From the NCBI GenBank assembly GCA_043803945.1, contig JAZDJN010000010.1, forward strand, positions 20,823 to 84,822: 64,000 nucleotides of DNA, in the 5' to 3' direction. Within the stretch, counting starts at the first letter, position 1, and each line of letters begins with the position of its first letter. Positions 35,368 to 53,310 of this stretch are shown piece after piece. The notes below the pieces were generated by a model. It was not told where the DNA came from and searched no databases. It was given only the letters and a program-made list of their open reading frames with translations. The position numbers and the translations under genes are program-made. This stretch comes from a bacterium. Lineage in GTDB: Bacteria; Bacteroidota; Ignavibacteria; UBA10030.

Positions 35368-35427
35368 GACTCATCCCCCCATCCCCCTTCTCTATTCTTA
35401 GAGAAGGGGGAGAAAGGGGGTTGAGTC
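35368..35427. repeat. REP-like palindrome H1 (uninterrupted copy)
   Basis: GACTCATCCCCCC-A-TCCCCCTTCTCTA-TTCT-TAGAGAAGGGGGA-GAAA-GGGGGTTGAGTC; related copies at 45084 and 53021. Confidence 0.9.
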
Positions 35428-35594
35428 CGAAAAACGGCTTTTCAATCATCCCAATAGTTATTACGTAAACAACTGAAAAGTACGCTGAGCAGTTACGAAT
35501 AAACAATGACTTTCGTTGAGTGAATTCCATTACGTCCCTTAATAATCGAGACGAAGTTGCGCCGACTTTCTATCTGCTCCAAATCGCTTACTGG

Positions 35595-38500
35595 TTATCC
35601 ATTGTCGAGCACGTTGCGTATCGCGCGGAGAACTACATTTGGATTATATGGTTTCTGTATGAATCCTTTCACCCCTTCTTTCAATATCTGTTCCTTCATC
35701 CCGGGTTCAATAAATCCGCTGGCGAGAATCATAGGAAGACCGGGATTCAACGCCTTCAGCTTTCGATACAGTTCATCACCGCTAAACTTCGGCAATCCAA
35801 GATCGGAGATCACCAACGCAATTTCTTTCTGATGTCGCTGATATGCGCCCAATCCTTCCTCACCATCCCCCGCTGTCAACACCGTGTACCCTTCCGATGC
35901 GAGAATTACTTTCACTAGTTCTCTCAGCAACTCTTCATCTTCGACCACGAGGATGGTCTCGCTGCCGCCGGGAATTTCCTCAGTCGTACGTTCTTGCACC
36001 TGTGTGAGCTCCAGTGTCTTGTATGGCACGGGAAAGCAACATTGGAATGTCGTTCCTTTGCCGAGATCACTCTTGACGGAGACAAATCCGTTATGGCTCT
36101 CCATGATCCCAAAGACTAACGAGAGACCCAATCCGGTTCCCTTGCCGCGCTCTTTTGTTGTAAAGAATGGCTCAAAGATGCGGCGCTGCGTCTCTTCGTC
36201 TATTCCCGTACCGGAATCAGCCACGCTGAGAACAACGTATTCCTGGTCGGTGGCTCTTGGATATTTGTCACGCAATGCCTCGCCCGATTCGGTATGTGTG
36301 GAGATCGTGAGCGTTCCACCGCTCGGCATGGCATCGCGCGCGTTCACACAAAGATTCAGCAAAACCTGATGGACTTGTGTTGCATCCGCTTCAATCAACG
36401 GTGAGTCGTTCTCAAGTTGAAGATCAATAGTAATCGTCCTGGGAAATGTTTCGTGGAGGAGTTTGATAACCTCGTTGACAACATTATTGAGTGTGACGGA
36501 CTCGATGAGTACATCAGTCTTTCTCGCGAAGGTAAGCATTTGTTTCACCAGATTGGCTCCCCTCATGGCTGCCTTCCTTATGGCTTCGACATTCTGTTGA
36601 ATGGTTGAACAATCAGCAGGAAGTCGTTCAAGTAATGCCGCATGACCGATGATGATGCCGAGGATGTTGTTGAAATCGTGTGCAATACCGCTGGCAAGTG
36701 TCCCCAGGCTTTCAAGTTTCTGGGCTTGCTGGAGCTGCGCCTCCAGGTATTTCTTTTGGTTTTCATTCACTTTTCGCTCAGTGATATCGCGCAGAGTGCC
36801 TATAATTTTTTTCGGATGCCCTTGAGCATCGAACTGGATCTTCGATGAAATAGAACATGGGATCTGTGAATCATCGCGGTTTTTGAGCGTGATCTCAAAA
36901 TCCGTAACTCTGCCGCGTTCCTGCAAAACCGCCAGGAGAGCTTCCCGCTCGCCGGGATTTGAATAAAAATCGTACATCGACTTTCCAAAGAGATCATTCC
37001 TATGATACTGTCCTTTCGACATGACCTCAATGGAAGGACTGACTTCGAGGATCGTTCCATCAATAGCTGCCTCGTAGAACACATCCTGCACATTTTCAAA
37101 GATGCCCCGATATTTTTCTTCGCTCTTCCTCAGCGCTTCCTCAACCCGCTTGCGCTCGGTTACGTCATGGATAACGCCAAGTATATATTTACCATCCTGG
37201 AGTTCGATGATCTCGCCGGATATCAGAGTATCCCGGATCTCGCCTGACTTGACGCGAAACTTCACCTCCAGGTTACGCACGCGTCCGTCACGCATCAGGA
37301 TGTTAATATACTGGTCGCGTGCCGCCGGGTCAGCCCAGAATTGCAATTCGTTTGTTCTCTTTCCAATAATTTCATCCTGAGTATAGCCAGTTGCCTCATA
37401 CAATTTTTCGTTTACCTCGACAAGCCGTCCTTCAGCTAGCGAAGTCAATACGATGATATCCGGGCTGCTTCGAAACGCCTTAGCAAATTTCTCCTCGGAT
37501 ATATGCAGCGCCTCCTCTGCGCGCTTGCTCGCCTGTTCGGCGAGCTTGCGTTCGGTGATGTCAATAATTACACCTTTCAGTTGAACAATTTTATCGTCTT
37601 CAACAACCGGAACCACATTGGTTTGAATCCATTTAATCGTCCCATCGGTTAGAATTAACCGTACTTCAAGACTGAAAGATTTTCTATTCTTGAATAGGTG
37701 TGCATGATTTTCGTCGAGAATATGAACATCCTCCGGATGAATTTTACTTCTGAAATACTCGAAGGATGGTTCAATTTCAAAGGGCTGTAATCCAAGAATG
37801 TTATAATAATTGTTGGACCATCTGTTCTCCTGAGTAACCATGTCCCATTCCCAACTACCCATTTTGCCAATGCGTTGTGCCTCGTTCAAGCGCACATCGC
37901 TCTCACGTAACGCTTCTACCGCTTCTTGTCGTTTTTTTTCCGTTTCGATTGTTTCTAATGCAAACGAAATATCGTTTATTACTTCATCCAGCAATTCAAT
38001 TTCTTCCTGATCAAAGAAAAGCGATGTGGGTGCGTAAAGACTGAAAGCGCCGATGACTTTTCCAAACAATTTTATCGGTAATGCAATCGAAGAACGATAG
38101 CCGCGCTTTAGTGCTTCATCTTTCCAGGGCGCCATCTTTGGGTCATTCTCTATGTCATTGCATACATAATGATTTCCTTCGCGGATTGCGGCACCTGTTG
38201 ATCCTCGTCCTTCGGGCGTATCGCAGACAGAAATCTTTTTGATCTTGGAAAGATAACCATCCTCAATTCCTGCAAAAGTGAACGTGTTCACAAGTTTAGT
38301 TTCTTCATCAACTAATCCAATCCACGACATCTGGAATTTCCCATGCTCGACTGCAATACGACATGCTTCTTGGAAGAGTCTCTCTTTGTCTCGAACCCTG
38401 ACAATCGCTTGATTAATCTGACTGATAACTGCATAGATACGACTCGCCTTGAGGATTTTTTCCTCCGCCCGCTTGCGCTCGGTGATGTCACGTATGAAAA

Positions 38501-39371
38501 CTGTCACTCCAACAATTTCTTCATGTTGATAGATCGGATTCCAACTGAACTCATAATAAATATCGGAATCTGGTTGATGTTGTGTTTCCGAAAATGCTTC
38601 TCCGTGTAACGCACGATCTATGCTTTGTTTTGCCAGTGCTCGAAACTCCGGCAATTGCATGCAATCAAGCAGATTCATTCCGATGTTGATATCAGCGTTC
38701 CATACTCGTTTCATTTCCTCCCGATGCTTTTCATTAAATATGGTATAGCAGTAATTTATATCCAGGGAGAAGATTATGATATCGCTTGCGCTATTGATCA
38801 AAGCGGTAAGCAATGCGTATTGGGATTCTAATACTTGTTCTGCGCGTTTCTGCTTTGCAAGTTCTGCATCGAGCTTTATAATCGTCTGCTCCGATTGAAG
38901 CATTTTGTCTTCCAACTTGCGGATCAAGGCTTCATTATACACCTGGTAGAATGTTGCATCTTCTTCTATCGATGGCGGAATCGCTGGTGTCCTGGGTATC
39001 TTTTTCTCCTTAAGGACTTCTTGCACGGTGGCAACGAGCTCTGAATGCTCTATCGGCTTTATCATAAACCTCGTTGCTCCAAGGCTCATCGCAAAATCCT
39101 CGTCTTCTTGTCTTGTGTAAGTCGCGGTGAAGAAGATAAACGGAATCTTGCGCAATCGCTCGTCCTTCATCCATTCGCGGCAAAGAGCGAAACCGTCCAT
39201 TTTCGGCATCAGAATGTCGGAGACGATAATATCCGGCGGATTTTCCCGCGCGCACACCAACGCCTCCACACCATTGGCAGCTTCCACAACGTTGAATCCG
39301 CTCTTCTCAAAAATGGTAGCGAGGAGATACAGATTTTGCTTATTGTCGTCAACAATCAATATGTTTATCAT
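35595..39371 (-). CDS. Hybrid sensor kinase REC-PAS-GAF-3xPAS-HisKA-HATPase-REC
   Basis: N-terminal REC (IVDD, SDILMPKMDG); DITERK PAC motifs; [10 protein letters not shown]; [10 protein letters not shown]; [16 protein letters not shown]; C-terminal REC. Confidence 0.96.
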   Translation of the reverse strand: MINILIVDDNKQNLYLLATIFEKSGFNVVEAANGVEALVCARENPPDIIVSDILMPKMDGFALCREWMKDERLRKIPFIFFTATYTRQEDEDFAMSLGATRFMIKPIEHSELVATVQEVLKEKKIPRTPAIPPSIEEDATFYQVYNEALIRKLEDKMLQSEQTIIKLDAELAKQKRAEQVLESQYALLTALINSASDIIIFSLDINYCYTIFNEKHREEMKRVWNADINIGMNLLDCMQLPEFRALAKQSIDRALHGEAFSETQHQPDSDIYYEFSWNPIYQHEEIVGVTVFIRDITERKRAEEKILKASRIYAVISQINQAIVRVRDKERLFQEACRIAVEHGKFQMSWIGLVDEETKLVNTFTFAGIEDGYLSKIKKISVCDTPEGRGSTGAAIREGNHYVCNDIENDPKMAPWKDEALKRGYRSSIALPIKLFGKVIGAFSLYAPTSLFFDQEEIELLDEVINDISFALETIETEKKRQEAVEALRESDVRLNEAQRIGKMGSWEWDMVTQENRWSNNYYNILGLQPFEIEPSFEYFRSKIHPEDVHILDENHAHLFKNRKSFSLEVRLILTDGTIKWIQTNVVPVVEDDKIVQLKGVIIDITERKLAEQASKRAEEALHISEEKFAKAFRSSPDIIVLTSLAEGRLVEVNEKLYEATGYTQDEIIGKRTNELQFWADPAARDQYINILMRDGRVRNLEVKFRVKSGEIRDTLISGEIIELQDGKYILGVIHDVTERKRVEEALRKSEEKYRGIFENVQDVFYEAAIDGTILEVSPSIEVMSKGQYHRNDLFGKSMYDFYSNPGEREALLAVLQERGRVTDFEITLKNRDDSQIPCSISSKIQFDAQGHPKKIIGTLRDITERKVNENQKKYLEAQLQQAQKLESLGTLASGIAHDFNNILGIIIGHAALLERLPADCSTIQQNVEAIRKAAMRGANLVKQMLTFARKTDVLIESVTLNNVVNEVIKLLHETFPRTITIDLQLENDSPLIEADATQVHQVLLNLCVNARDAMPSGGTLTISTHTESGEALRDKYPRATDQEYVVLSVADSGTGIDEETQRRIFEPFFTTKERGKGTGLGLSLVFGIMESHNGFVSVKSDLGKGTTFQCCFPVPYKTLELTQVQERTTEEIPGGSETILVVEDEELLRELVKVILASEGYTVLTAGDGEEGLGAYQRHQKEIALVISDLGLPKFSGDELYRKLKALNPGLPMILASGFIEPGMKEQILKEGVKGFIQKPYNPNVVLRAIRNVLDNG

Positions 39372-39513
39372 CCTTATCCTCGCAATTTGAATGTGGTCAT
39401 AGAAAGCTGGAGCAAAAGCTTCAGAACGAAGTCATGAAGTCCGGCGAATTCTAGATGTATTTTTGTGTCTTCGGATTTCTTTGAGGCAAAATAAAAGGAT
39501 TCCTTCCGAGTTT

Positions 39514-39876
39514 CTACCTCAAATATTTCTTGATATCTGTAATGAACGTTTCCGGATTTATCGGTTTTTCGATGTAGCCGGTGCAGCCTTCAGCAAGTCC
39601 ACGCTCTCGATCCCCGGCCATTGCATAGGAAGTTACGGCTATGATGGGAACGTTGTCTAACGCCCTGTTCTTTCGTAACTCCGCGGCAACGGTATACCCA
39701 TCCACGCCGGGCAATTGTATATCGAGCAAAATCAGAGCCGGTTCGATCTGGCTGGCAAGTTCGATTCCCCGCATTCCATCCACTGCCGAAACGACTTTGA
39801 AACCATTGCTTTCCAGAATGTACGTGACAAGATATCGATTTTGTTCGTTGTCTTCGATAAGAAGTATTTTCTTCAT
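39514..39876 (-). CDS. Single-domain response regulator (DivK/CheY-like)
   Basis: LIEDNEQN...LLDIQLPGVDG...AVTSYAMAGDRE...YIEKPI; overlaps the stop of the upstream kinase. Confidence 0.95.
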   Translation of the reverse strand: MKKILLIEDNEQNRYLVTYILESNGFKVVSAVDGMRGIELASQIEPALILLDIQLPGVDGYTVAAELRKNRALDNVPIIAVTSYAMAGDRERGLAEGCTGYIEKPINPETFITDIKKYLR

Positions 39877-42800
39877 TTTATCTCCTTTGCTAAGGGCAAT
39901 GTGAACGTAAAGGTGCTTCCCATGCCATACTCGCTTTCCACGGTGATTGTCCCACCCAAAAGTTCTAATAAGTTTTTGCAGATGGAAAGTCCTAAGCCCG
40001 TCCCTTCGTAGCTTCGAGTCAGACCGGTTTCCATCTGCTGGAACGGCTGGAACAATTTATCTATGTTTTCCGCGCGAATGCCGATTCCTGTGTCGCGCAC
40101 GCTCGTTTCGATCCAACCGTCACGTCCCCGGCAAGTGATATGGATTTCTCCCCGCTCAGTGAACTTGATCGCGTTATTGATCAGGTTGATGAGAATCTGT
40201 TCCACCCGGCGCTGATCGCTGACGATCACTCCGACATCCAATCCAATCTCCATTCTGAGCGAGATACCTTTTTTTTCAGCGGCGGGCAGCGACGTCTCCA
40301 CGACGGTTAAGAATATCATTCGAAGATCAAACGGTTTCTTGCTGATCTGAAGTTGTCCGGCTTCAATTTTGGAAATGTCGAGCACGTCATTAATCAGTTC
40401 AAGCAAATGGTGTGCGCTTCCGCTGACCATCGTAAGCTGTTTCGATTGCTCTTCGTTCAACGGTCCCGCCATTCTCTGGAGAAGGACACTGGAGAATCCG
40501 ATAATGGAGTTGAGCGGCGTGCGCAATTCGTGTGACATAGCAGCAAGAAACTCCGACTTTATACGGTCGGCATCCTGCGCATTCTCCATTGCAAGTGTGA
40601 GTTCTCTCGTCCGCTCGGCCACGCGCTGTTCGAGCTCTGCATTGAGCCGCTTGAGTCCTTCCTCAGCCTGCTTGCGCTCGGTGATCACATCAAACACAGC
40701 GATAAAATATTCTTTTTGATTACTGTATACAGCGATTGAAAACCACATATCGAGTGTAGGCAAATAACTTTCAAATCGTTCCGGCTTACCTGTTAAAGCA
40801 ACTCTACCGTAAAGCTCTAACAATTCCGGGTTAGATTCTTTTATACCGGGAATTACTTCTGAAACTTTTTTTCCGGTAACATTTATTAATCCTGTTAGTT
40901 CTTCAAATTTGTGGTTGACATCAAGGTAAACAAAATCTTGTGGATGTCCGTCTTCGAATAACATTTTGCAATAGGCAAAACCTTCCAGCATGTTCTCGAA
41001 CAGTGAATGGTATTTTTCTTCACTTTCACGAATTGCTTCTTCTGCTTTTTTACGTTCGGTGACATCTTGAAGAACTCCAAGACTTCCGATAATTTTTCCT
41101 TCCTGGTCTTTGATCTGAGACGCGGTATCATTTATCCAACGAATTTCACCGTTTCGTGTCTTAATCTTATAATCAGCAAGCCAATGTGAACGTTTACCTT
41201 CCCTTACTAATTGTCCTGCTTCTTCGATAGTTAATCCCGCACATTCCTCCAACATTATTACTTCCTGTCGAAGTTCCTTCCATAGCGATGGAATGAATTC
41301 TTCGACAGAATACCCTGTGTAATTGATGATATCTTCTCCAATAAAATTATAGAAATCTTCATGATAATATCGAATATAGGGAACTGCTTTAGCTTGTATA
41401 AGAGCCTGCCGGTATTGTTTGTGGGTCTCATCTAAAACTTCTTCCGCCCGCTTGCGCTCGGTGATATCGCGTGCCATTGCAAAGATCAGCTTTTCATCAA
41501 CCAATGGATAGGAGCTCCAGGATATCCATTTGTAAGAGCCATCTTTGCAAAGATAACGGTTATCAAAGGTCATGACTGTTTTACCTTCGGAAAGACCACT
41601 TGCAGCGTTTATAGTCGGTTCACGGTCATCAGGATGAACAAACTCAATGTATGGCTTCGACTTGAGTTCTTCATTTTTCCAGCCAAGAGTCTTTTCCCAC
41701 GCAGGATTGAGCTGTTTGAAGTACCCGTCAAAACCAGAAATGCTCAGCATATCGATCGAAAGGTTGAACATACGGTCGCGGTCCATCTCTATCTTCCTAC
41801 GCTCGGTGATGACTTCTGAGAAGAGAATAATTCCGCTGATTTCATTATTGTGTTCGTACCACGGACGAATTTCCCAGCGAACCCAGTCTAACTTTCCACT
41901 CATACGCGGGAAGGGATCTGCATCAGCTCTTTCCGTTTCTCCCGCCAGACAACGCTTGTGGATTTCTTTCCATCGTTCGGGAATCTCCGGGAAGATTTCG
42001 TAATGAGAACGGCCGACTACGTCCTGTTCGCCTAAGTCATAGTCGATGAGGTAGCGGCGGCTTGCAACAATATACTTCATCTCGCTATCAAACATGGCAA
42101 TAGCTGCCGGTGAATGCTCAACAAAAAGTCTAAGCACAGCCTCGTTTCTTTGAATCGTTTCTTCCGCGCGCTTACGCTCGGTGATGTCAATGAACGTTGC
42201 CAGAAAGTTGTCATCTATTGTGATACCGGAAATAATGATTTCACGAACATTGCCATCCCGACAGGTAACATGATATTCTTCAGATTCGATATCCGTGCCC
42301 GTTTCCGCAGCGCGTTGGACGGCTGACTCCCAATTTTGGACAACCCATTGCCTGTATTGTACTTCGGGATAGGCATTCGTCCACCATTCGGCGAGGGTTG
42401 GAACATCATCATTCGTATAACCGAAAACTTTTATAAACCGCTCGTTTCTGAAAGTAATCACTCCGTCTTTGTTCACATAGCAAAGAGGTAATGGTGTACT
42501 TTCCAGGAGCTTCCGAAACTTCCCTTCGCTTTCACGTAGCGCTTCTACCGCTTGTTGCCGTTTCTTTTCCGTTTCGATTGTTTCAAGTGCAAACGAAATA
42601 TCGTTGGTTACTTCATCCAACAATTTAATTTCTTCCTGATCGAAGAAATGCGGTGTATGTGCGTAAATACTAAAAGCACCAATTACTTTTCCAAAGAGTT
42701 TTATCGGTAATGCAATCGAAGAACGATACCCCCGCTTTAATGCTTCATCTTTCCATGGTGCCATACGCTGGTCGTTTTCAATATCTTCGCATACAAAATG

Positions 42801-44075
42801 TTTTCCTTCTCTTATTGCTGTTCCTGTTGGTCCGCGTCCTTCAGGAACATCGCTAATGGAAATCTTCCTAATCTTTGTGAGATAACCATCTTCAACTCCA
42901 GCGAACGTTACGGGGTAAACATATTTTGTCCCTTCATCAACTAAACCGAGCCATGCCATCTGGAATTTTCCGTATTCAATAGCTATTCGGCAAGTTTCCT
43001 CGAAAAGTTTATCTCTATCGCGTATTCGAACAATCGCTTGGTTGATCTGACTGATAACTGCATACACACGATTGGCTTTAAGGATTTTTTCTTCGGCTTG
43101 ATTGAGTTCGATTACACGTTGTTCCAGATCGGCGGCGTAGCGCTGAGTGGATTCGTACAGCCGAGCATTCTCGATTGCCAGCGCCGCCAGATTGGCAAGG
43201 GTGCTGCACAGGCTGATCTCTGGCTCGGAGAGCACTCGCGGCTCTTCGGCGGTGGACACGATGATCGTACCCAGCACTTTAGTTCCGGCAATAAGCGGCA
43301 GGTAGAGTATCGAGCGCAAATCCCGTATCTCGGTGACGGCTCGTTCCGCCGGAGTGAGGTCGGCGGTTGCAGTGTCGGGCAGGAAGACAGGCAAGCCGGT
43401 GGTGATTGCTATGCAAATGTGGGGGTGGTCGGCAAGCGGCGCATTGCGCAATTCTTCGGGGAAGTGTGGGGGTAGCGGAGGTGTGGTCGCCCACAGACGC
43501 AACGTTTCTCCCTCGAGTAGATAAATAGCGGAGCTTTTCAGTTCCGTCAGTTCGGCTACACGATCGGTGGTTGTCTGAAGGATGGTACTGAGGTTCAGCG
43601 TGGCAGCAAGCTCCTGACTAATCTTTAACAGTGTAGACAGTTCCACTGAGTGCCGGTGATTTTTTTCTTCCGAAAGCTTGCGCTCGGTGATATTTTGGGC
43701 GATTACCAATGCTGCCTCGCGTTTTTTGTGCTCCACTGAGTGAGATGTGAACTCCACATTAATGATGTGACCGTCTTTCAACTTGAGGCGCCATTCACCT
43801 GAATGCTGCAACTCTGGCCCTTCCTTTGCAGCATCATCGAGCAAGCGTGCAACATCTTCCGCAGGTAGAATGTCTTTCAGTGTCATCTTGAGGAATTCTT
43901 CAAGGGTGTAGCCGTATTTGTCTATAGCGGCACCGTTCACATCGAGAAAGGCAAGTGTCTTGAGATCGTACACCCACATAGGGAGGGGGTGATGGTGGAA
44001 CAGAAGGTGGAAGGTTTCCTCGCTCGACTTAGATTGGGGGGGACGCGTTCTTCGGAGAGATTTTTTGGTTTTCAT
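39873..44075 (-). CDS. Sensor histidine kinase PAS-2xGAF-5xPAS-HisKA-HATPase
   Basis: MSHELRTPLNSIIGF; NLINNAIKFT; DTGIGI; GTGLGL; no TM segment seen. Confidence 0.96.
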   Translation of the reverse strand: MKTKKSLRRTRPPQSKSSEETFHLLFHHHPLPMWVYDLKTLAFLDVNGAAIDKYGYTLEEFLKMTLKDILPAEDVARLLDDAAKEGPELQHSGEWRLKLKDGHIINVEFTSHSVEHKKREAALVIAQNITERKLSEEKNHRHSVELSTLLKISQELAATLNLSTILQTTTDRVAELTELKSSAIYLLEGETLRLWATTPPLPPHFPEELRNAPLADHPHICIAITTGLPVFLPDTATADLTPAERAVTEIRDLRSILYLPLIAGTKVLGTIIVSTAEEPRVLSEPEISLCSTLANLAALAIENARLYESTQRYAADLEQRVIELNQAEEKILKANRVYAVISQINQAIVRIRDRDKLFEETCRIAIEYGKFQMAWLGLVDEGTKYVYPVTFAGVEDGYLTKIRKISISDVPEGRGPTGTAIREGKHFVCEDIENDQRMAPWKDEALKRGYRSSIALPIKLFGKVIGAFSIYAHTPHFFDQEEIKLLDEVTNDISFALETIETEKKRQQAVEALRESEGKFRKLLESTPLPLCYVNKDGVITFRNERFIKVFGYTNDDVPTLAEWWTNAYPEVQYRQWVVQNWESAVQRAAETGTDIESEEYHVTCRDGNVREIIISGITIDDNFLATFIDITERKRAEETIQRNEAVLRLFVEHSPAAIAMFDSEMKYIVASRRYLIDYDLGEQDVVGRSHYEIFPEIPERWKEIHKRCLAGETERADADPFPRMSGKLDWVRWEIRPWYEHNNEISGIILFSEVITERRKIEMDRDRMFNLSIDMLSISGFDGYFKQLNPAWEKTLGWKNEELKSKPYIEFVHPDDREPTINAASGLSEGKTVMTFDNRYLCKDGSYKWISWSSYPLVDEKLIFAMARDITERKRAEEVLDETHKQYRQALIQAKAVPYIRYYHEDFYNFIGEDIINYTGYSVEEFIPSLWKELRQEVIMLEECAGLTIEEAGQLVREGKRSHWLADYKIKTRNGEIRWINDTASQIKDQEGKIIGSLGVLQDVTERKKAEEAIRESEEKYHSLFENMLEGFAYCKMLFEDGHPQDFVYLDVNHKFEELTGLINVTGKKVSEVIPGIKESNPELLELYGRVALTGKPERFESYLPTLDMWFSIAVYSNQKEYFIAVFDVITERKQAEEGLKRLNAELEQRVAERTRELTLAMENAQDADRIKSEFLAAMSHELRTPLNSIIGFSSVLLQRMAGPLNEEQSKQLTMVSGSAHHLLELINDVLDISKIEAGQLQISKKPFDLRMIFLTVVETSLPAAEKKGISLRMEIGLDVGVIVSDQRRVEQILINLINNAIKFTERGEIHITCRGRDGWIETSVRDTGIGIRAENIDKLFQPFQQMETGLTRSYEGTGLGLSICKNLLELLGGTITVESEYGMGSTFTFTLPLAKEIK

Positions 44076-44779: not shown

Positions 44780-44802
44780 GATGATCTCCGTTTCCTGAAG
44801 AC

Positions 44803-44820: not shown

Positions 44821-45083
44821 TATTCCTCAAACGATAGAAGGAAAAAAGTGAGGAGGTGCCAATAGAATAAGAGATTTCTGAATGTGCTACTGACTATAGT
44901 TAGTCGAGCTGGTGTTTTCCTTGAAGGTTCTACAATCGGTGAATGGGGGTGTAAGGGATGAGTCAGATAAGAAGAATTAACAATGCTCTAGGACCTTTTC
45001 GAGAAGCTTCTTCTCGCACAATGCTCGCAAAGAAGCGCAACGCTCGCTACAATGATGTAACTTTTTAATACGCTGTGAGACTT

Positions 45084-45205
45084 ACTCAACCCCCTTAATC
45101 CCCCTTCTCTAAGTTTTAGAGAAGGGGGTATGCCTGCTCGCCGACTTGTCCACCGAAGTTCGAAGAACGGAGGTGGAAGCGGGAGCGTAGGCGAGGGGGA
45201 TGAGT
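45084..45205. repeat. REP-like palindrome H2 carrying two nested micro-insertions (45133-45195 outer, 45145-45177 inner)
   Basis: Same arms as H1/H3; the 30-nt insert of H3 is present but split by an extra 33 nt. Confidence 0.9.
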
Positions 45206-45256
45206 CAGATAAGCAGAAATATTTAACCTTTACGTGACACTCTATCACGTTCTCTC

Positions 45257-47245
45257 TTACTCCAAATGAAGTTCCGATTTAATGAATCGTTCAAATTGAT
45301 CGGGCGAGACTGGTTTAACAAGTACATCCACTGCACCACTGAGCATAAGCGCCTCCCGGCTCGAAGCAGAATCCTCCCCCGTGACGACAAGAACAGGAAT
45401 ATCCTTTGTTGCCTGCTCCTGCTTCAATCGTGTTAGAAAATCAAATCCGTTGACTTCAGGCATCGCATAATCAGTAATAATCAGTTTAGGCCGGTACTTC
45501 AACGCATAGAGAAATCCTTCCTTGCCATTATTCGCGTGAATCAGTGTAGCGTTTGGAAAAAGTCTGGAAATGTATTTACTATGAAGCACTCGGATACCAG
45601 GCTCATCATCAATAACCAATATTTTTAATTCTCCCTCGCCGACACTTTTTTGAAACCATAGAGCAAATTCGGTTCCTTTACCAACTTCACTCGCAACAAT
45701 GATCGATCCATGGTGTTTCTTGACAATCTCATGCACAACTGATAAACCAAGCCCGGTACCCTCTTCACCGGCAAGCCCGCGCCGGGTATATTTTTCCTCA
45801 ACTTTATAAAGTTTACCCAGATCTGTTGCAGGGATACCGATACCCGAATCTTTAATCGTCACAACCCACGTTGCTTCATCTTCCCCGGTGTATTCAACCT
45901 GAATGACCCCCTGTGCCGGTGTAAACTTCAACGCATTCCCGATGAGGTTATTGAATACCTGTAGAAGAAGCGCACGATCTCCCTTAATACACATTCTCGG
46001 TTTTAGGCTAGAATAAAGGAGAATATTTTTCTGTTTGGCAATTCCTAAGAGCGATGAGATGCTCGACTTCACCACATCATAGAGATCAACCTCGGTCATT
46101 TCTACTCGCATTCGCCCGGATTCCAGTCGGGTCCAATCGAGCAGTTTCGATACCAGTCCCAGTTGTTGTTGAGTCGATTCTTTAATATAGCCAAGGTATT
46201 CCGTAATCTCTGCCTCAGTGAGAGTCTTCCGATCCTCTGTCAATATCTCACAGAATCCCATAATGCTCGCAAGCGGAGATCTCAGGTCGTGAGATAAGAT
46301 TGAGACAAATTTATCTTTTTGTTTATTGATGGCATCTAATGCTTCGCGTGATGCTTTGAGTGCTTTCACATGCTCATGTAAACGTTCTTCGAGCGCCTTC
46401 CGGATAGTGATATCCTCGAGCATCCCTTCAAAATACAACATGGTCCCCTTTTCGTCACGAATGGCTCGAGAATGCTCGAGAACAACAATTTCCTGACCAT
46501 TCTTTTTCTTGAGCCTTTGCTCATAATTTGTGCATTGTCCCTTTTCAGTTAATTCTCTCACAAGATCTTTTCGATCTTCCGGGTGAACATAGATATCGGC
46601 AAGATTGATGGCTGCCAGTTCCTCGAAGGAAGAATATCCCAGCATCGTGAGAAGAGATCGGTTCGCCATAATTAAGTACCCTTCCGGTGTACTCTGAAAC
46701 ATTCCCTGTAAGGCTTGTTCAAACATATTCTGATATTTTTTTGTCGCCTCGGCGATAATCGCACCGACCTGTTTTGTGTGGGTTCGATTGTGAGCGGAGA
46801 CAAGAAAACCCTCAATCCTTTCAGAACGAATCACCGGGGTTAATATCACTTCGGCTCGTTGTGCAGGCCGCTCGTATCCTTTGATCGCCACCTCCATCGT
46901 AACCGATGACCTCGTCAGAACACTTCGCTTTACCATCGCGGTTACGTGTTGGCGATCCTCAGCAGAAACAAAAAACAAATACTCCTTTCCGCTCGCTTGT
47001 TCAGAACTCAAACCCATAGCCTTTTCAAACGAAGGATTTACCATGCAAAGTAATCCATTCCTCGAAAAGAGCAGTTGCATCACCGGCGAAGAGGTGAACA
47101 GGTGTTCGTACAGCATTTTTGATTCCTCAGGTTGACTAAACTGGTTCATCATCGGCCAAGGTGATGTGGTCGATTTTAACAATCCAGTTTGTGTTGAGGC
47201 TTCAAAAGAATGATGAGTATCTGCATTCGGAGTGATGGCTGCCAT
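45257..47245 (-). CDS. Hybrid sensor kinase 2xPAS-HisKA-HATPase-REC
   Basis: LSHDLRSPL; NLIGNALKFT; DSGIGI; GTGLGL; REC VIDDE...TDYAMPEVNG...KP. Confidence 0.95.
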   Translation of the reverse strand: MAAITPNADTHHSFEASTQTGLLKSTTSPWPMMNQFSQPEESKMLYEHLFTSSPVMQLLFSRNGLLCMVNPSFEKAMGLSSEQASGKEYLFFVSAEDRQHVTAMVKRSVLTRSSVTMEVAIKGYERPAQRAEVILTPVIRSERIEGFLVSAHNRTHTKQVGAIIAEATKKYQNMFEQALQGMFQSTPEGYLIMANRSLLTMLGYSSFEELAAINLADIYVHPEDRKDLVRELTEKGQCTNYEQRLKKKNGQEIVVLEHSRAIRDEKGTMLYFEGMLEDITIRKALEERLHEHVKALKASREALDAINKQKDKFVSILSHDLRSPLASIMGFCEILTEDRKTLTEAEITEYLGYIKESTQQQLGLVSKLLDWTRLESGRMRVEMTEVDLYDVVKSSISSLLGIAKQKNILLYSSLKPRMCIKGDRALLLQVFNNLIGNALKFTPAQGVIQVEYTGEDEATWVVTIKDSGIGIPATDLGKLYKVEEKYTRRGLAGEEGTGLGLSVVHEIVKKHHGSIIVASEVGKGTEFALWFQKSVGEGELKILVIDDEPGIRVLHSKYISRLFPNATLIHANNGKEGFLYALKYRPKLIITDYAMPEVNGFDFLTRLKQEQATKDIPVLVVTGEDSASSREALMLSGAVDVLVKPVSPDQFERFIKSELHLE

Positions 47246-47301
47246 AATGTATCCCCTTAGTGTATAATGAAAATAATTCTCTGTGGCATTGATTCTTACC
47301 G

Positions 47302-49734
47302 TTACTTTACGTGAATGAGTCGTTGTATTAGCACGCGCTGGCCATACTGTAATCGTGCGAAATATATTCCACTCGCCATGTTCTTTGCATCCCAGACTTT
47401 ACTGTAATTCCCTGCCGGTTTTTGCTCGTCCACAAAGGTGTCCACTTCTCTTCCAATGGAATCGTAGATCTTGAGAACAACACGCCCGGCAGCGGGAAGA
47501 TGATATCGAATGGTTGTGCTGCTGTTGAAAGGATTTGGATAGTTTTGATCGAGAACCAGCGAGTCTGGAATTATAAATTGCTGTTCAACCGGGGTTGTAG
47601 CCTGGGGAACGGTGAGAAGACCGTACTCGCGTGTTCGGTCTGAAGAATCACGTTCTCGAATGATATATTCAATTCTCGAAGACGAAGGTGAAAAATTATC
47701 TGTAAATCGAGTGAGTGAATCGGTCGAGATTATTGAGGACACCATGGGAGAAAACACTCCCAATCGTCTGACAATGGAGGAGCCCGCATCCTTTGCCAGT
47801 ATTTCCACAGCAGCAAGCGAATATGAATTACGCTTTTTCCATTGAATTTCATTTTTTGAACTCGTCAATGCAGAGATTGATGCCGATAAATAGGAGGGCG
47901 AGAAATAAGCAGAACCGGTAAGAGAACGCAGGAACGTGAGTCCATCAGCCGACGGCCGCGTCCCAACCCCCGATTGGATAAGGCGTGTTTTCAAATCAGC
48001 ACTGTGTGCCTGCGGTTGAAGCTGAAATGCAAGAGCAAGAAGCCCTGTGATTTGTGGCGCCGCGAAACTTGTGCCGAACCGGAGGATGTAACCATTGTAC
48101 TCAGCATTCGGCGAAGGGGTCAATACGCCGCCACCCGCCGCTAAAATTTCTGGTTTCTGCCGCTCATCGAGAGTTGGTCCTTCACTACTAAATGAACTGA
48201 CCTGGCCTAGTTGAAGAGACGCATCGATGGAGCCGACGGTAATGGCTTCCTTCGCATTCCCTGGGGAACTGACGAGATATCGGCGTGTTACCTGGCTGTT
48301 TTTATCATCAAACCAGGCAGTTCCCCCGCGTAAATTTGAGTCCACCAGCCAGAGATGAAAACGGCCTGATTCACGCGATCGGAGATTCTTCACGATGATA
48401 TTCCATCGGCCGGGCTGAATCTTTGATTGCCCCATGCTTGCCAACTGAATGGAAGCGAGATACAATCGAGTCAGCGGCGATATTCCACGGGAAGCATTAT
48501 CGATAAAACCCACACCATCGGACGTTTGGCTGAATCCATAATTTCCACGCGTCACTGCCTGAATTCTTTTTCCCGACGGTGTAACAATACTAATTTGCAC
48601 ACTGTCATCAGGTGAATACCAGGTTTCTATTCCAACCGATGAGCTTGATTGATCGAAGGATCCGATGCTCGACGGGATATCCATACCGATGGAAATTGAA
48701 TCCCCCTGGTAATGCAAAACACCCTCAGCGTGAATTGGATTTTCCCTATCATTCCCCGCGGCAACAACGACCGCAACTCCCGGACTTGCCGCAATTGCAT
48801 CTATGGCCAGCTCATACAGCCTCGATCCATTATGAGCACCGTACCGGCTGCCAAGGCTCAGATTAATAACGAGTGGCTTTCGCAGGGAATCGGCTATTCT
48901 TTTTGCATAGAGCATCCCATCAATTATTCTCGCTTCGCTGAAGCAATCATCCCCTCCTTTGATAATGATCAAATCAGACTTTGGTGCAATTCCACACAAC
49001 TCACCTTTCGATAGCAAACCATTTCCCGCTGCAATCCCTGCTACCGCTGTTCCATGGCCAGTGAAATCACGCTCACGAACATAGCTGGTTCTCTCTTGTT
49101 TTAGTTCACTGACAATGTCGTTTCGTGAGTACTGAACCCCATAAGAGTATCCACCGGGGGTATGATGTGTTACATCTGGCTGATCTGTTTGGTCCCACAG
49201 AAACAATATGCGACTCTGAGTGACAGCATTATTTGCCGAGAAATCTGGATGTCTCCAATCGATTCCTGAATCATAGATCGCAATGAGTACGCCTTCACCG
49301 GTAATCGGTTGGTTTTTAAGTATACCCAGATGTGCATCTTTTACATTTGTCAAATAGGTATTGGGTAATTCACTTGGGCGCTCGACGTGCGATTCTTGGA
49401 CATAAGTCACATCTTCACATTGAAGAAGAGTTTTGAGCTCTTCGAGTGTCGCTTCGATAGTGGCGATGGAATGAATTCTCGATCGAACCCGGAATCCTTG
49501 TTTGATCAACTCATCGATCTTCTCGGACTGCAGAATGAGTTCCAGCGTATCGTTGGAATTGATTGCACTTCGCTTTGCCAGCGATGTTTCGAACAATGTT
49601 TGATAGCGCATGCGAAGTGTGGGCGATAATTTATGTTCATCCTGTGCATAAACGGCTGACGTGAACGAGAGCGCCAGAATTGAAGCGAAGTAAATGCAGT
49701 AGATTCGAAAGGTGGATGACATTGAATTTCTCAT
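47302..49734 (-). CDS. Secreted S8 (subtilisin/CspA-like) serine peptidase with T9SS type A C-terminal domain
   Basis: Triad YDSGID / GHGTAVAG / GTSFAAP; AAGN; CTD LDQNYPNPFNSSTTIRY...ASGIYF; signal peptide ending SAVYA-Q; start 49734 or 49722. Confidence 0.92.
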   Translation of the reverse strand: MRNSMSSTFRIYCIYFASILALSFTSAVYAQDEHKLSPTLRMRYQTLFETSLAKRSAINSNDTLELILQSEKIDELIKQGFRVRSRIHSIATIEATLEELKTLLQCEDVTYVQESHVERPSELPNTYLTNVKDAHLGILKNQPITGEGVLIAIYDSGIDWRHPDFSANNAVTQSRILFLWDQTDQPDVTHHTPGGYSYGVQYSRNDIVSELKQERTSYVRERDFTGHGTAVAGIAAGNGLLSKGELCGIAPKSDLIIIKGGDDCFSEARIIDGMLYAKRIADSLRKPLVINLSLGSRYGAHNGSRLYELAIDAIAASPGVAVVVAAGNDRENPIHAEGVLHYQGDSISIGMDIPSSIGSFDQSSSSVGIETWYSPDDSVQISIVTPSGKRIQAVTRGNYGFSQTSDGVGFIDNASRGISPLTRLYLASIQLASMGQSKIQPGRWNIIVKNLRSRESGRFHLWLVDSNLRGGTAWFDDKNSQVTRRYLVSSPGNAKEAITVGSIDASLQLGQVSSFSSEGPTLDERQKPEILAAGGGVLTPSPNAEYNGYILRFGTSFAAPQITGLLALAFQLQPQAHSADLKTRLIQSGVGTRPSADGLTFLRSLTGSAYFSPSYLSASISALTSSKNEIQWKKRNSYSLAAVEILAKDAGSSIVRRLGVFSPMVSSIISTDSLTRFTDNFSPSSSRIEYIIRERDSSDRTREYGLLTVPQATTPVEQQFIIPDSLVLDQNYPNPFNSSTTIRYHLPAAGRVVLKIYDSIGREVDTFVDEQKPAGNYSKVWDAKNMASGIYFARLQYGQRVLIQRLIHVK

Positions 49735-49747
49735 GATGACTGAATTT

Positions 49748-49765
49748 CTACAAGTGGTATGCCAG
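49748..49765 (-). promoter_or_regulatory. Putative sigma54 promoter
   Basis: CTGGCAT-ACCAC-TTGTAG; upstream site TGTAGATTCTATA at 49837-49849. Confidence 0.6.
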
Positions 49766-49882
49766 CGGGATATTCCATTTAGCATTGATTTATGCGGAAA
49801 TACAGAAGGACAATTCGAGGCCAGACGATGCGCGATTGTAGATTCTATAAATTCAGATCCAGCATTCTCTGATACTTGCTCT

Positions 49883-50062
49883 GCCACAAAGACACTAAGG
49901 CGCCAAGGAATCTGGTCGAAAAGTGACTTTGCCACTGAGTCACAGAGAGCACAGAGATAGTCTTTTTGAAATATTGAGGATAGAACCAACATTTATCAAT
50001 CTCTGTGACCTCCCCGCCTGCCGCTATAGTATCTAAACTGGCGGGCAGGTGTGTCTCCGTGG
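49883..50062. repeat. CACAGAG/CACAAAG-type short repeats with a 37-nt palindromic micro-insertion (50013-50049)
   Basis: GCCACAAAGACACTAAG, GCCACTGAGTCACAGAGAGCACAGAG, and inverted CTCTGTGACCTC^TGTGTCTCCGTGG split by CCCGCC...GGCGGGCAGG. Confidence 0.75.
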
Positions 50063-50085
50063 CGGACTTTTCGACCGGATTACCC

Positions 50086-50120
50086 AAAAAAAAGCGCCGA
50101 AGAATATTTTCTTCGACGCT
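50086..50120 (-). terminator. Intrinsic terminator after the 50148 gene
   Basis: Minus strand AGCGTCGAAGAA-AATA-TTCTTCGGCGCT-TTTTTTT. Confidence 0.85.
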
Positions 50121-50147
50121 CCGTTCTTCCTCTACTGCACCGTGCAG

Positions 50148-50915
50148 CTATTTTAGCAAGATCATTCTACGGGCTGTCATAGATGATGCGGTCTGCACCC
50201 TGATAATATACATTCCTGAAGGCAGGGCCGATCCAGACCGATCCATTGCATTCCATGCCAATGTATGCTCCCCAGTTAGTTGGTTTCCCTCATAGAGGCG
50301 GTCGATTACTCTTCCAGCCACATCATAGATTGCTATAGAGACATACTCTGGCTTCAACAGTCGGTAAGAAATCGTGGTAGAAAGGTTGAAGGGATTGGGA
50401 TAGTTTTGAGCTAACTGAATTGTATTCTTAAGATTAGCGAGAATGAAATCATTATAGGGGTAATAGGGAGCCGCTGTTATCGGCAGCATCTTCACCTGAT
50501 CGACTAACTCCAATCTGCTGATGAAGATCACGGAGGAATCCGATATTTCACGTTCTGCAAATTTTAACGTCACGCTGCCGATTTCCCGATTCCCTGCTGG
50601 TAAATTATTATAGACCGGGGTTAGAAAGAGAAAGTTCAACGTCGTATCATCTTTAAGATAGTGATGAACCTCAACTCCAGAACTGCTAAATTGAGAGGCA
50701 ACTTGCATTTCCGAGAACCGAACCCCGTTACGCGCATTCAGATAAACAAGTGCTCCGCCGACCGGGTCACTGTGTTGCAGCACGATGGTAATTGTATTCG
50801 GTTCTTTCCCTTTTTTTATCAGAATTGTATTTTCCGAATGGAGTGTAACAGGAATTATTATGAACATTGAGGTAACTATAATCCAAACGACCTTACTTAT
50901 ATTTCGATAACACAT
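50148..50915 (-). CDS. Secreted protein with T9SS type A/FlgD-Ig C-terminal domain
   Basis: Start likely ATG 50915 (AGGAG RBS); signal peptide; LAQNYPNPFNLSTTISY...WNAMDRSGSALPSGMY. Confidence 0.88.
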   Translation of the reverse strand: MCYRNISKVVWIIVTSMFIIIPVTLHSENTILIKKGKEPNTITIVLQHSDPVGGALVYLNARNGVRFSEMQVASQFSSSGVEVHHYLKDDTTLNFLFLTPVYNNLPAGNREIGSVTLKFAEREISDSSVIFISRLELVDQVKMLPITAAPYYPYNDFILANLKNTIQLAQNYPNPFNLSTTISYRLLKPEYVSIAIYDVAGRVIDRLYEGNQLTGEHTLAWNAMDRSGSALPSGMYIIRVQTASSMTARRMILLK

Positions 50916-50951
50916 TGACGTTCTCCTGAGATCATATCGACACGAGCTATA

Positions 50952-50969
50952 CTCCAACGATTGTGCCAG
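50952..50969 (-). promoter_or_regulatory. Putative sigma54 promoter
   Basis: CTGGCAC-AATCG-TTGGAG; weaker upstream site TTACAAATCTACA at 51067-51079. Confidence 0.55.
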
Positions 50970-51162
50970 TGCTATCTCAGAAGAGTCTGGGTATAATCAC
51001 ATCATAATATCTAAGAAACTGGAAGGAAATATTGGTCCACCGCAATGAGTATGCAGAGTTATTTTATTACAAATCTACAAATCGTGAAAGGAAACCTTCG
51101 CGGCATGCTTTTATTGGTTACACGAAGGTACACGAAGGAAAGAAGTCTCACATTTGGAAGGC

Positions 51163-51487
51163 AGGTGACTGGCACCTTCCGATTGATTAGTTGCATTCAG
51201 AATTGCATCTAACCGTTCGCTAAAATAAGGATCTCTACGAAGCGAACGGTTAGCTCCATTGAGGCAGATGACCGTCACCTCGTCTAGGATTAGCCTCGTT
51301 CAGGTGACGGTCATCTCACAAGCTCGGTCGGGCGGGGTTGAGGGCACAGAAACACAGATGATCGGCACCAAATAGGGTCGGGAGCAGAACTCCCTCCCAG
51401 CTTGAATAGGCGATGGCCATCTCACAAATGGAAAGCGGATGACCGGCACCTCGTCTTGGATTAGCCGCGTTTAGGTGACGGTCATCT
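51163..51487. repeat. Cluster of AGGTGACNGTCAYCT REP-like inverted repeats
   Basis: Perfect 15-bp IR 51266-51280/51302-51316; near-identical 51-nt copy 51437-51487; degenerate half copies near 51163, 51356 and 51408; separate 13-bp IR 51209-51253. Confidence 0.85.
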
Positions 51488-52869
51488 CATTCCGGTTGGG
51501 TAATTTGGAATGCCTGTATTTTTGAGTAAAGAGTCTTAACACTGATCCCCAATATTTTTGCTGCCAGTGGTTTATTCCAACGAACAGAATCTAACACTGC
51601 AGCAATATGGAGTTTTTGAATCTCATCTAATTTCAGCGTACCGCCAATCCGCGGCACCGTGTTCGATAGTTCTACCTTACCCTCAAACATCGATGGCATA
51701 CCAAACGGCAGCGCCAAATCTTCGGGCAGTATAACATTCCCTTCACAAAGAATCGACGCACGTTCGATGACATTTTCCAATTCTCGTATGTTCCCGGGCC
51801 AACTATACTTCAGCAATATTTCCAATGCCTTCTCATCGATACGTTTAGGTGTGGTTGTCTTATTTTTTGCAGTAATAAAATGTTCAATCAACTGTGGGAT
51901 GTCATTCCTGCGCTCTCGTAACGGAGGTAACTTCAGGGTAAAGACATTCAATCGGTAAAATAGGTCTTCACGAAATCGTCCTTCTTGAACCTCGCGATGG
52001 AGATCTCTATTCGTTGCCGACAGGATTCTGACATCGGATCGAAATATCCTGTTCCCTCCGACCCGGCGATATTCACCCGTTTGGAGAAACCGAAGCAATT
52101 TTGGCTGGAGCACTCTGGGAATCTCCGCTATCTCATCGAGAAAAACAGTACCTCCATTTGCCACCTCCATCAACCCCTGCTTTGATGTAACTGCATCGGT
52201 AAAGGCACCTTTCTCATGGCCAAAGAGTTCACTTTCAATAAGCGCATCGGGAAAGGAGGAACAATTCAGAGCAAGAAATGGGTGCTCTTTCCGCAGGCTG
52301 TTCGCATGAATAAAATTCGCAATCAGCTCTTTCCCTGTGCCACTCGATCCTTGTATTAGGACGCTGGAATCTGTTGGAGCCACGCGGGAGGCAACAGACA
52401 AGAGTTCTATTAATGTTTTATCCTGGCCGATAATCAACGCGTGCATCGCTTTCGCTGCCAGCTCATTCCGAAAGCCGATATTATGTGCGAGTAGCCTTTT
52501 TCGCTCCAGTGCACGATCAATCAGCGAAAGCAATTCGGCAGGTTGATAAGGTTTCGTCACATAATGGAATGCACCCATCTTCATACAATTGACCGCAATA
52601 CTCAGGTCATCTACTCCTGTTAACATAATGACCTGCAGCTCAGGGAATCGATCTTTGATAAATTTCAGAACTTCAATACCACTAATTTGCGGCATTTCGA
52701 TATCGAGCAATACCAGGTCGTAAGGCACTATCTGGAGTTCATTGATTGCGGTGAGTCCATCCTTGGAGGTGGCGACAAAATATCCTTCCAATTCCAGTAA
52801 ATTCTTCGCCGTTTCCAGAAACGCCGGTTCATCATCGACAATTAAAATGGATATAGGTACTTTTGGCAT
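51487..52869 (-). CDS. Sigma54-dependent response regulator (NtrC/AtoC family: REC-AAA+-Fis HTH)
   Basis: GSSGTGKE; ESELFGHEKGAFTDA; FLDEI; FREDLFYRLNV; WPGNIRELEN; AAKILGISVKTLYSKI. Confidence 0.97.
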   Translation of the reverse strand: MPKVPISILIVDDEPAFLETAKNLLELEGYFVATSKDGLTAINELQIVPYDLVLLDIEMPQISGIEVLKFIKDRFPELQVIMLTGVDDLSIAVNCMKMGAFHYVTKPYQPAELLSLIDRALERKRLLAHNIGFRNELAAKAMHALIIGQDKTLIELLSVASRVAPTDSSVLIQGSSGTGKELIANFIHANSLRKEHPFLALNCSSFPDALIESELFGHEKGAFTDAVTSKQGLMEVANGGTVFLDEIAEIPRVLQPKLLRFLQTGEYRRVGGNRIFRSDVRILSATNRDLHREVQEGRFREDLFYRLNVFTLKLPPLRERRNDIPQLIEHFITAKNKTTTPKRIDEKALEILLKYSWPGNIRELENVIERASILCEGNVILPEDLALPFGMPSMFEGKVELSNTVPRIGGTLKLDEIQKLHIAAVLDSVRWNKPLAAKILGISVKTLYSKIQAFQITQPE

Positions 52870-52924
52870 ACAACTTCTCTCCGAAATTATTTGTTATACG
52901 AAGATACACAAAAGGAAGAAAATA

Positions 52925-53310
52925 GCGTTTGCGTGAGACTGTTTATTGTTTCTCGCTCGCCACCTGAGAGTCTAATGAGGCGGGCAGGCAGAACACGCAA
53001 CGGACGCAAAGGAGTTGTTTTTACTCATCCCCCTCGCCTACGCTCCCGCTTCGGCGAGCAGGCATACCCCCTTCTCTAAAAAATAGAGAAGGGGGATTGA
53101 GGGGGTTGAGTAAGACAAACAGCTTTTTCAAAAAATAAAGATGTTACACGAAGAGCACTCCGCCATAGGCGGATCAGCCTTCCACCAAAAAGACGGCGGA
53201 CAGGTCGGCTGAGAAGAAGGCACGAAGAGAAATATACATCGTGGTTCTTCGTGGTGCAACTTCCCTGCCCGCCGGAATACGAAGTATGTAGGCGGGGTGT
53301 TCCTTCGTGA
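52925..53310. repeat. Compound repeat region: REP-like palindrome H3 (53021-53113) plus CGCAAA- and CACGAA-type repeats, with five micro-insertions
   Basis: Inserts at 52956-52988, 53033-53062, 53159-53212 (containing 53181-53204) and 53264-53296. Confidence 0.88.

Follow-up and report, generated by a model that had tools for sequence, protein, structure and literature searches.

How does one small palindrome come to stand bare at one site of a bacterial genome, with a 30-nt hairpin inside it at a second, and at a third with that same hairpin split by yet another? The question is raised by three palindromes, H1, H2 and H3, in a 64,000-nt stretch of an Ignavibacteria genome (the window, G000:C10:20823-84822). 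G000 denotes the genome itself (5.54 Mb, 118 contigs, 46.5% G+C) and C-numbers its contigs; G010, G014, G101 and G167 are relatives. Comparisons were made with 201 genomes of the order (G000 included), 44 other genomes of the same family and 41 related genomes (again including G000); in the genome set its genus is represented by this genome alone. A sequence-only reading of the window had described one REP-like (repetitive extragenic palindromic) hairpin in three states, empty, singly invaded and doubly invaded. We give a probability of about 65% to a related view, in which H1-H3 would be copies of an old, order-wide palindrome serially invaded by small REP-like hairpins. The three-state anatomy is exact. 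Two parts of the earlier description need changing: H1 belongs to another host subfamily than H2 and H3 and is not their direct empty ancestor, and 'REP-like' fits the passengers and not the host.

The three palindromes share a shell of ~58 nt, itself a nested palindrome, in which a 5' arm ACTCATCCCC(C), a linker of 3-5 nt, an inner hairpin (CCCCCTTCTCT-loop-AGAGAAGGGGG), a 5-nt linker and a 3' arm GGGGGTTGAGT follow one another (Table 1). Nothing is inserted in H1. H3 carries a 30-mer, and H2 holds the identical 30-mer interrupted by a 33-mer after ...CCCGCT, at GCT^TCGG in the loop of the 30-mer (^ marks the junction); a half copy of the host lies near H2. The bare H1, the 30-mer of H3, its split counterpart in H2 and the half copy had been read correctly from the letters, to the base, as had the lack of a visible target-site duplication: none is seen at any junction of H1, H2 and H3 inspected. 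Chance is excluded as the origin of the repeated hairpin parts of the window, the inner-hairpin pattern matching three times against 0.00 expected (100 shuffles) and the first 19 nt of the 30-mer twice against 0.01 expected in shuffles. In the predicted folds every passenger adds a branch of its own or extends the previous one, and the stems of the host stay unbroken.

Both passengers are members of one superfamily, whose elements are 24-37 nt long and share a 6-bp GC stem (YYCRCC/GGYGRR), a loop and a 3' tail CARG. The search pattern YYCRCC, 6-32 nt, GGYGRR, CARG finds 146 matches in the genome, the two window passengers among them, against 10 for the control, which is the pattern read backwards; narrower patterns give 61 against 1 and 82 against 0. 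The stem covaries: position 1/6 is C-G in 76 matches, T-A in 52 and mismatched in 18, and position 2/5 is C-G in 118, T-A in 12 and otherwise in 16. Open reading frames (ORFs) of at least 150 aa cover 83.7% of the genome, yet 116 of the 146 matches lie outside them. The CCCGCC...GGCGGGCAGG form recurs in 31 of the 41 related genomes, with one backward-control match overall. Besides the passengers of H2 and H3, four more superfamily sites are found in the window.

The layering seen in H2 is repeated across the genome. A self-BLAST for collinear repeat pairs that differ by an 18-90-nt piece present in one copy only returned 56 filled sites (128 pairs of high-scoring segments). The extra pieces, 21-88 nt, are mostly small GC hairpins or twin hairpins from a few recurring families; the junctions between filled and empty partners are exact and without target duplication, and nesting reaches three to four levels. 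Insertion points touch unpaired bases of the empty copy in 43/57 cases, against a background of 56.6%, a modest excess from events that depend on one another. The TCCRCC-type subfamily, with 59 matches, has a landing preference: T stands directly before the element in 37 and directly after it in 49, and 23 lie at T^TCG, in at least five different host hairpins. Its commonest junctions are TGA^TGCG (9), CCT^TCGG (8), GCT^TCGG (5), ACT^TCGG (5) and ACT^TCGT (3). Two landings at T^TCG are in the window, those of the 33-mer of H2 and of a 24-mer 3' of H3. The preference explains why the 33-mer recurs at the same position in the 30-mer without any need for common descent.

Neither passenger type is tied to one context, a confinement that by its own terms would have spoken against the sequence-only reading: the 30-mer type has a second host, and the 33-mer family stands in other contexts in metagenome contigs. 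A 30-mer-type variant (…CTCCCGCTTCGGCGGAGCGGGCC) has ten copies in G000 at no more than three mismatches. Its pattern occurs in 3 of the 201 genomes of the order, G000 counted, and in none of the 44 other genomes of the family; G167 has two copies in quite different contexts (locus L049), G101 one coding-looking match. A contig scan for the 30-mer core gave 33 stretches, and most of the 14 examined are single matches in high-GC coding-looking DNA that we take as chance, leaving two relevant ones (L047 and L049). The variant also occupies a second, 'type-2' host of ~270 nt with two inverted hairpin modules; near-identical copies of this host differ by the insert alone, C106 being filled and C40 empty. 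The 33-mer type is present in G000 in three host/insert lineages (H2/C15/C81, C16 and C5) and in three diverged versions. Among metagenome contigs its family was found in seven stretches representing six distinct contexts, none of them a 30-mer; in one (L123) it lies inside a sibling TCCGCC-type REP, again at GCT^TCGG. Nine aligned copies of the 33-mer have 24 invariant columns and a mean column identity of 93%. The modules of the type-2 host (AAATCCCCC-nnn-CCCCCTTT..AAAGGGGG) surround a spacer of ~60 nt and are bounded by direct GCTGAGTAAAT words.

Could the passengers instead have been copied by recombination, gene conversion or template switching among palindromes, yielding a mosaic like the bacterial interspersed mosaic elements (BIMEs) with no dedicated enzyme? 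The composite shared by C15 and C81 is 96-97% identical between flanks of 83%, which fits homogenisation, each subfamily tends to recur in the same host context (nine copies at GGCTGA^TGCG, for example), and the 30-mer and 33-mer are tied to no enzyme. Conversion, however, would require homology to the left and to the right, and passengers of one type sit in hosts whose flanks are unrelated; base-exact junctions, CARG always at the 3' end and T^TCG as a recurring site are what would be expected of a site-specific single-strand enzyme. We regard copying among palindromes as improbable, at something like one chance in six.

Which of the states came first is a question for the host. The collection of arm copies that the sequence-only reading had proposed as a check yields 23 arm pairs spaced at most 420 nt apart in G000; judged on content, 6 of them are chance pairs, and the 17 real ones include empty, singly filled and doubly filled copies. 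All host loci of types 1 and 2 that were checked (24/24) are intergenic. A T.T mismatch in the outer stem (ACTCAT vs TTGAGT) is kept in most copies, in G000 and in relatives across genera, which gives the host palindrome a fixed polarity. The exact inner hairpin is found in 10 of the 41 related genomes. In 10 relatives of the order 36 host cores were read, most with an arm no more than 15 nt away; the 30-mer and the 33-mer are in 0/36 of these cores, and a single one (G014, L067) carries other cargo at the same junction, 77 nt of different GC-rich hairpins. Judged by this comparison the empty host is old and widespread in the order, and the filled forms are specific to this lineage. Since empty hosts stand in ten relatives, none of the 36 cores is filled by either passenger and the 30-mer-type insert is missing from the 44 other genomes of the family, the long form is, on this comparison, derived and not ancestral.

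Some further observations concern the host. The T.T mismatch lies at 35374/35421, 53028/53106 and 45200/45089 in the window and is seen in relatives at L069, L074, L076 and L077. The passengers of H2, H3, C21 and C81 are all on the T-arm (5') side. About 80 nt beside the 3' arm of H2 (window 45003-45083) are 74-81% identical to DNA beside C2:13128-13210, C19:45349-45396 and C38:17951-18002, and so the repeated unit is sometimes longer than the hairpin. On C98 (50246-50445 and 59249-59441) the usual inner hairpin between type-1 arms is replaced by a ~170-nt repeat (ends ...GGCTGTCTAAAAAGAAA / TTTCTTTTTGGAC...) that has CACCGGAAT..ATCCGGTG as its own inner hairpin; this repeat is also at C16:77700-77900 and C58:51700, and it often hosts twin-hairpin inserts of 30 nt and 47 nt. 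G010 (L085-L095) has a larger, compound version of the host, in which the arms often surround a pair of hairpins (TCCCTCTCTT.. and CCCCTTCTCT..) that is itself set within another inverted repeat, GTGTGAAAA / TTTTCACAC.

With the passengers removed, H2, H3, C15 and C81 are 95-100% identical to each other but reach only 80-85% against H1, whose group also includes C95 and C69; the empty copy nearest to these four is G000:C5:5497-5554, at 91-97%. Over 128 nt H2 matches C81 at 96.9% identity; past the edges of the element the likeness ends, the flanks being unrelated. C15 and C81 lie within a 611-nt duplication of 82.8% identity, and C15 has a clean extra insertion of 50 nt on its 3' side. The most parsimonious order, and the one that the comparison supports, is that a CTCGCC-type 30-mer would have entered the host between outer stem and inner hairpin; that the composite of host and 30-mer would have been copied to other loci; that T^TCGG, at the tip of the 30-mer, would then have received a TCCACC-type 33-mer; and that the double composite would have been copied again, to C81 and C15, with a further CCCGCC-type element entering the 3' side of C15. 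The earlier proposal of acquisition, spread and re-invasion is thereby supported on comparative grounds, namely by empty hosts in relatives, dispersed passengers, the T^TCG site and the unrelated loci of H2 and C81. That the elements have been mobile we infer from comparing copies and genomes; in two public sequencing runs that a search brought up, next to nothing of this DNA is present.

The reverse order, with the doubly filled form ancestral and the short forms arising by precise hairpin deletion through replication slippage across palindromes, strikes us as very unlikely. Palindromes are deletion-prone, the 33-mer junctions share 2-4 nt that could support slippage (TC in H2 and C16, TCGG in C5), and in G000 the 33-mer type is never outside a 30-mer-type loop. 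Against deletion stand the empty hosts of the ten other genomes, none of whose 36 cores holds these passengers, the metagenome contigs in which the 33-mer family is on its own, and the many unrelated hosts of the same passenger families, each of which would need a filled start. A deletion between direct repeats was considered for the short form of H2 and rejected: recombining the two CTTC words gives a product different from the one observed.

About as unlikely to us is a reading of the entire unit as a family of structured non-coding RNAs, with optional stems gained or lost and the variable modules as expansion segments, for although the predicted folds are very stable (z -7.4 to -10.1 on both strands), the loop of the 30-mer reads CTTCGG, which forms a stable tetraloop in RNA, and all examined copies are intergenic, both strands fold equally well, no Rfam family is at threshold, the orientation to flanking genes is inconstant and the modules occur in many unrelated hosts. 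In the window the host copies lie 52-214 nt downstream of minus-strand genes for PAS/histidine kinases, to which H2 is sense and H1 and H3 are antisense. The Rfam scan of the window brought only three tRNAs to the gathering threshold, and between 35000 and 53500 only sub-threshold generic hairpin matches (microRNA precursor models) far below gathering scores. A role as terminators was also rejected, no T-run following the hairpins on the transcribed strand when the sequence was read, without a terminator prediction scan.

Table 1. Palindromes and passengers of the window (window positions) and related loci elsewhere in the genome (contig:position)
Feature	Position	Strand	Details
H1, empty type-1 host palindrome	35369-35426	+	5' arm ACTCATCCCCCC, 3' arm GGGGGTTGAGT; outer arms ACTCATCCCC / GGGGTTGAGT with conserved T.T mismatch; inner hairpin 35383-35410; predicted fold -46 kcal/mol, z -8.1
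Half copy of host	44945-44966	-	5' arm, linker and C-run without inner hairpin; then a flank shared with H2 (repeat D18)
H2, type-1 host with both passengers	45084-45205	-	On + strand: 3' arm 45084-45094, inner hairpin 45100-45128, 5' arm 45196-45205
Split 30-mer of H2	45133-45195	-	5' part 45178-45195, 3' part 45133-45144; 30/30 identical to 30-mer of H3
33-mer, second-level passenger in H2	45145-45177	-	TCCACC-TCC-GTTC TTC GAAC-TTC-GGTGGA-CAAG
Superfamily member CCCGCC...GGCGGGCAGG, 37 nt	50013-50049	+	Inserted within another repeat, which has 5 empty partners at other genome sites
Superfamily member CTCGCC...GGCGGGCAGG, 33 nt	52956-52988	+	Directly upstream of H3
H3, type-1 host with one passenger	53023-53111	+	5' arm 53023-53033, inner hairpin 53067-53095, 3' arm 53101-53111
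30-mer passenger of H3	53033-53062	+	Between 5' arm and linker; stem CTCGCC/GGCGAG, 14-nt loop, 3' tail CAGG
TCCGCC hairpin	53159-53173		Adjoins the TCAGCC...GGCTGA hairpin
24-nt TCCACC...GGCGGACAGG passenger	53181-53204	+	At CCT^TCGG, in loop of small hairpin TCAGCC...GGCTGA (53174-53212)
Superfamily member CCCGCC...GGCGGGCAGG, 33 nt	53264-53296	-	
Simple empty hosts, n=7	C2, C5, H1, C19, C38, C69, C95		
Hosts with 30-mer-type insert, n=2	H3, C21		
Hosts with both inserts, n=3	H2, C81, C15		
Compound host loci, n=2	C16, C84		
Hosts with other cargo between arms, n=3	C98		One cargo is a ~170-nt element
Type-2 elements	C40:23007-23130, C106:2813-2969, C87:327736-327892, ~10 more		
Nested locus	C95:35508		Repeat > twin hairpin > TCCGCC element > 19-20-nt hairpin
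Nested locus	C101:1914		TCCGCC 29-mer carrying TCCACC-type 29-mer at ACT^TCG
Nested locus	C16:77814		Deep nesting, among the 3-4-level examples

As to how a serially invaded palindrome would be filled, the elements may have been moved as single-stranded DNA by one of the REP-associated tyrosine (HUH/Y1) transposases of the genome, and may land in the single-stranded tips or junctions of extruded hairpins. Twelve Y1_Tnp matches are candidates, on C31, C66, C56, C62 (2), C18, C16 (2), C65, C85, C73 and C72, and their HuH/Y motifs differ. Of seven tested, six have the NCBIfam model 'REP-associated tyrosine transposase' as their best match, one above the cut-off (121 bits) and five below it (62-70 bits vs 80), and one is IS200-type. 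Several are flanked by classical GTAG REPs with 40-70 genome-wide BLAST matches each. The gene at C72:16442-17035 has four distinct CCCGCC-type superfamily hairpins (five pattern matches) within 800 nt, where genome density predicts ~0.08; these sit within a tandem series of another palindromic unit, of whose copies some are filled and others empty. Its protein has the HuH motif NHLH, the Y motif YIHNNP and, as third signature, WE instead of WQ, and the first two appear to fit the printed signature of Y1 subclass 2.6. That subclass is from Bacteroidetes, and the available part of PMC6006769 describes 'atypical secondary structures' on its flanks, of which the genome has copies at other sites. 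A link between such enzymes and the passengers would be in keeping with these features. Among 16 IS200-type genes (15 of relatives and the one of G000) a single one, G010:C455, has a host hairpin nearby, which we take as coincidence.

A stronger form of this proposal would make the single CARG hairpin, 24-37 nt, the transposed unit itself, excised as a single strand by a RAYT-like (REP-associated tyrosine transposase-like) HUH enzyme and pasted into T^TCG(G) tips without duplication. We hold this to be doubtful.

Several findings weigh against serial invasion by a hairpin-directed enzyme. The insertion point lies in the predicted loop of the empty copy in 24/57 cases against 25.6% in the background, a modest excess from events that are not independent, and no landing-site consensus was found for the CYCRCC type. 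All five 33-mer-type copies of G000 (C10, C15, C81, C16 and C5) are within 30-mer-type loops. In the type-2 host the insert occupies 7 of 13 right-hand modules (one, on C5, doubly filled) and 0 of 12 left-hand ones, the latter read by eye, which suggests a few insertions followed by spread of the composite and not many independent hits. Covariation within the 33-mer family amounts to one pair changed on both sides (G-C to A-T), a score that 143 of 500 shuffles reach; for the stems of the superfamily, Fisher p-values overstate significance because the copies are related. Within 1.2 kb of the 12 Y1 genes of G000, the host, the exact 30-mer and the 33-mer are found beside none (0/12), and the tandem repeat at C72 may be the real partner of that enzyme.

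The passengers have the properties of REPs save one. They are imperfect GC palindromes of 24-37 nt with a fixed tetranucleotide foot, many copies and mostly extragenic positions, as in REP/REPtron systems, and the window pair, 30 and 33 nt with stems CTCGCC/GGCGAG and TCCACC/GGTGGA, falls within the 20-40-nt palindrome size of REPs. The foot differs, being CARG at the 3' end (CYTG on the other strand) and not GT[AG]G or CGTC; GTAG does occur in other REP families of this genome. In contrast to REPINs, which are doublets of REPs in inverted orientation with a short spacer, what is inserted here is a lone hairpin, exact at its ends in filled/empty pairs. Atypical feet are described for Y1 subclass 2.6 and class 3 in the excerpted text of PMC6006769. 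REPs within larger palindromes are likewise on record: the available portion of Di Nocera et al. 2013 (PMC3733652) gives GTAG-15 dimers of Anabaena variabilis, GTAG-23 of Thermomicrobium roseum and CGTC-1 of Halothiobacillus neapolitanus, and for T. roseum reports empty target palindromes in the genome as well. The likeness to those cases, as far as that portion describes them, is a REP in the middle of a larger palindromic repeat; the differences are the 3-4 nesting levels, superfamily members inside each other, another tag and a T^TCG site for one subfamily. The elements of G000 are therefore atypical REP-like hairpins nested in a palindromic repeat, a kind of nesting that is already known.

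The host resembles a MITE (miniature inverted-repeat transposable element) by being a short non-coding intergenic repeat with 11-nt terminal inverted arms and variable cargo between them. It differs in its length of only 58 nt, in the T.T mismatch of its arms and in the lack of a target-site duplication at copies whose flanks were read; no transposase matching the host palindrome was found. For nesting as such the closest likeness is to the small dispersed repeats (SDR1-8) of Nostoc punctiforme, which Elhai et al. in 2008 reportedly described as 21-27 nt long with a conserved hairpin, nested in other repeats and in their own copies, and for which an RNA intermediate is said to have been proposed. 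Compared by description only, they share with the present elements a very small size and nesting in repeats and in themselves, here to 3-4 levels (C95:35508, C101:1914, C16:77814 and H2). The genome, unlike theirs, is not cyanobacterial, and SDRs are given as confined to Nostocaceae in the accessible text of PMC5861425. A cyanobacterial origin of G000 was considered and rejected: the highly iterated palindrome HIP1 has 107 copies in 5.5 Mb, about chance level, and sorting domains of the type IX secretion system (T9SS) are present.

Transposition of the IS200/IS605 type, according to the parts of PMC6006769 at hand, combines hairpin recognition, no target duplication, insertion beside a short specific word and single-stranded DNA chemistry. 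With these elements and their transposase-less derivatives, the palindrome-associated transposable elements (PATEs), the passengers share the absence of target duplication, a hairpin basis and a short landing word. Theirs are two distinct subterminal hairpins, left and right, in an element of at least 100 nt that inserts 3' of a fixed tetranucleotide, whereas a passenger is one hairpin of 24-37 nt, and the landing word T^TCG is found in only 23/59 TCCRCC-type members. The sole IS200-type gene of the genome, on C31, is not associated with passengers.

Two further repeats were seen. Positions 614-1085 of L117 (G000:C102:55000-56084) comprise a tRNA-Met gene (614-688) and, behind it as far as the contig end, a tandem array of period 99 nt, which also closes contig C60 (L118, G000:C60:18800-19786). 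The units of the array are copies of the 3' part of the tRNA, each with a 54-nt composite passenger, a twin hairpin plus a TCCGCC element, in the T-loop at GGTTC^GAGCC. In the window, two 55-nt direct repeats (51264-51318 and 51435-51489, noted together with 51408-51427; 91% identical) are each an internal palindrome (…GATGACCGTCACC…GGTGACGGTCATC…). They are intergenic, past the stop of a sigma-54 activator gene (51487-52869, minus strand) and before the start of a 269-aa gene (50148-50957, minus strand), and are unrelated to the host and passenger families.

How REPs spread is still poorly understood, as the consulted part of PMC8266576 has it, and most of the evidence so far comes from GTAG-tagged REPs and REPIN doublets of Proteobacteria. 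For REPs in Ignavibacteria the literature searches gave one paper, on an unrelated 18-nt motif of Caldithrix, and in the titles and abstract openings searched no hairpin-loop landing site is described for REPs, REPINs or RAYTs. These searches turned up no description of four features: the CARG foot, insertion of singlets as units, a landing site at T^TCG and nesting of such depth. The genome offers dozens of exact filled/empty pairs, a landing site at hairpin tips, nesting that gives relative order and 12 candidate enzymes, and three questions become testable: whether a single hairpin suffices to move, which target it takes and which enzyme moves it. The lesson for annotation is that where intergenic palindromes of such genomes vary in length, the variants are insertions in layers and neither noise of the assembly nor separate RNA genes. 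Were single CARG hairpins indeed the transposed unit, they would be among the smallest mobile DNAs known, and this would contradict the opinion that mobility belongs to REPIN doublets alone, REP singlets being dead remnants. The 56 filled/empty pairs would then define the ends and the target of the element, and the genome would be building Russian-doll repeats whose layers record the order of events.

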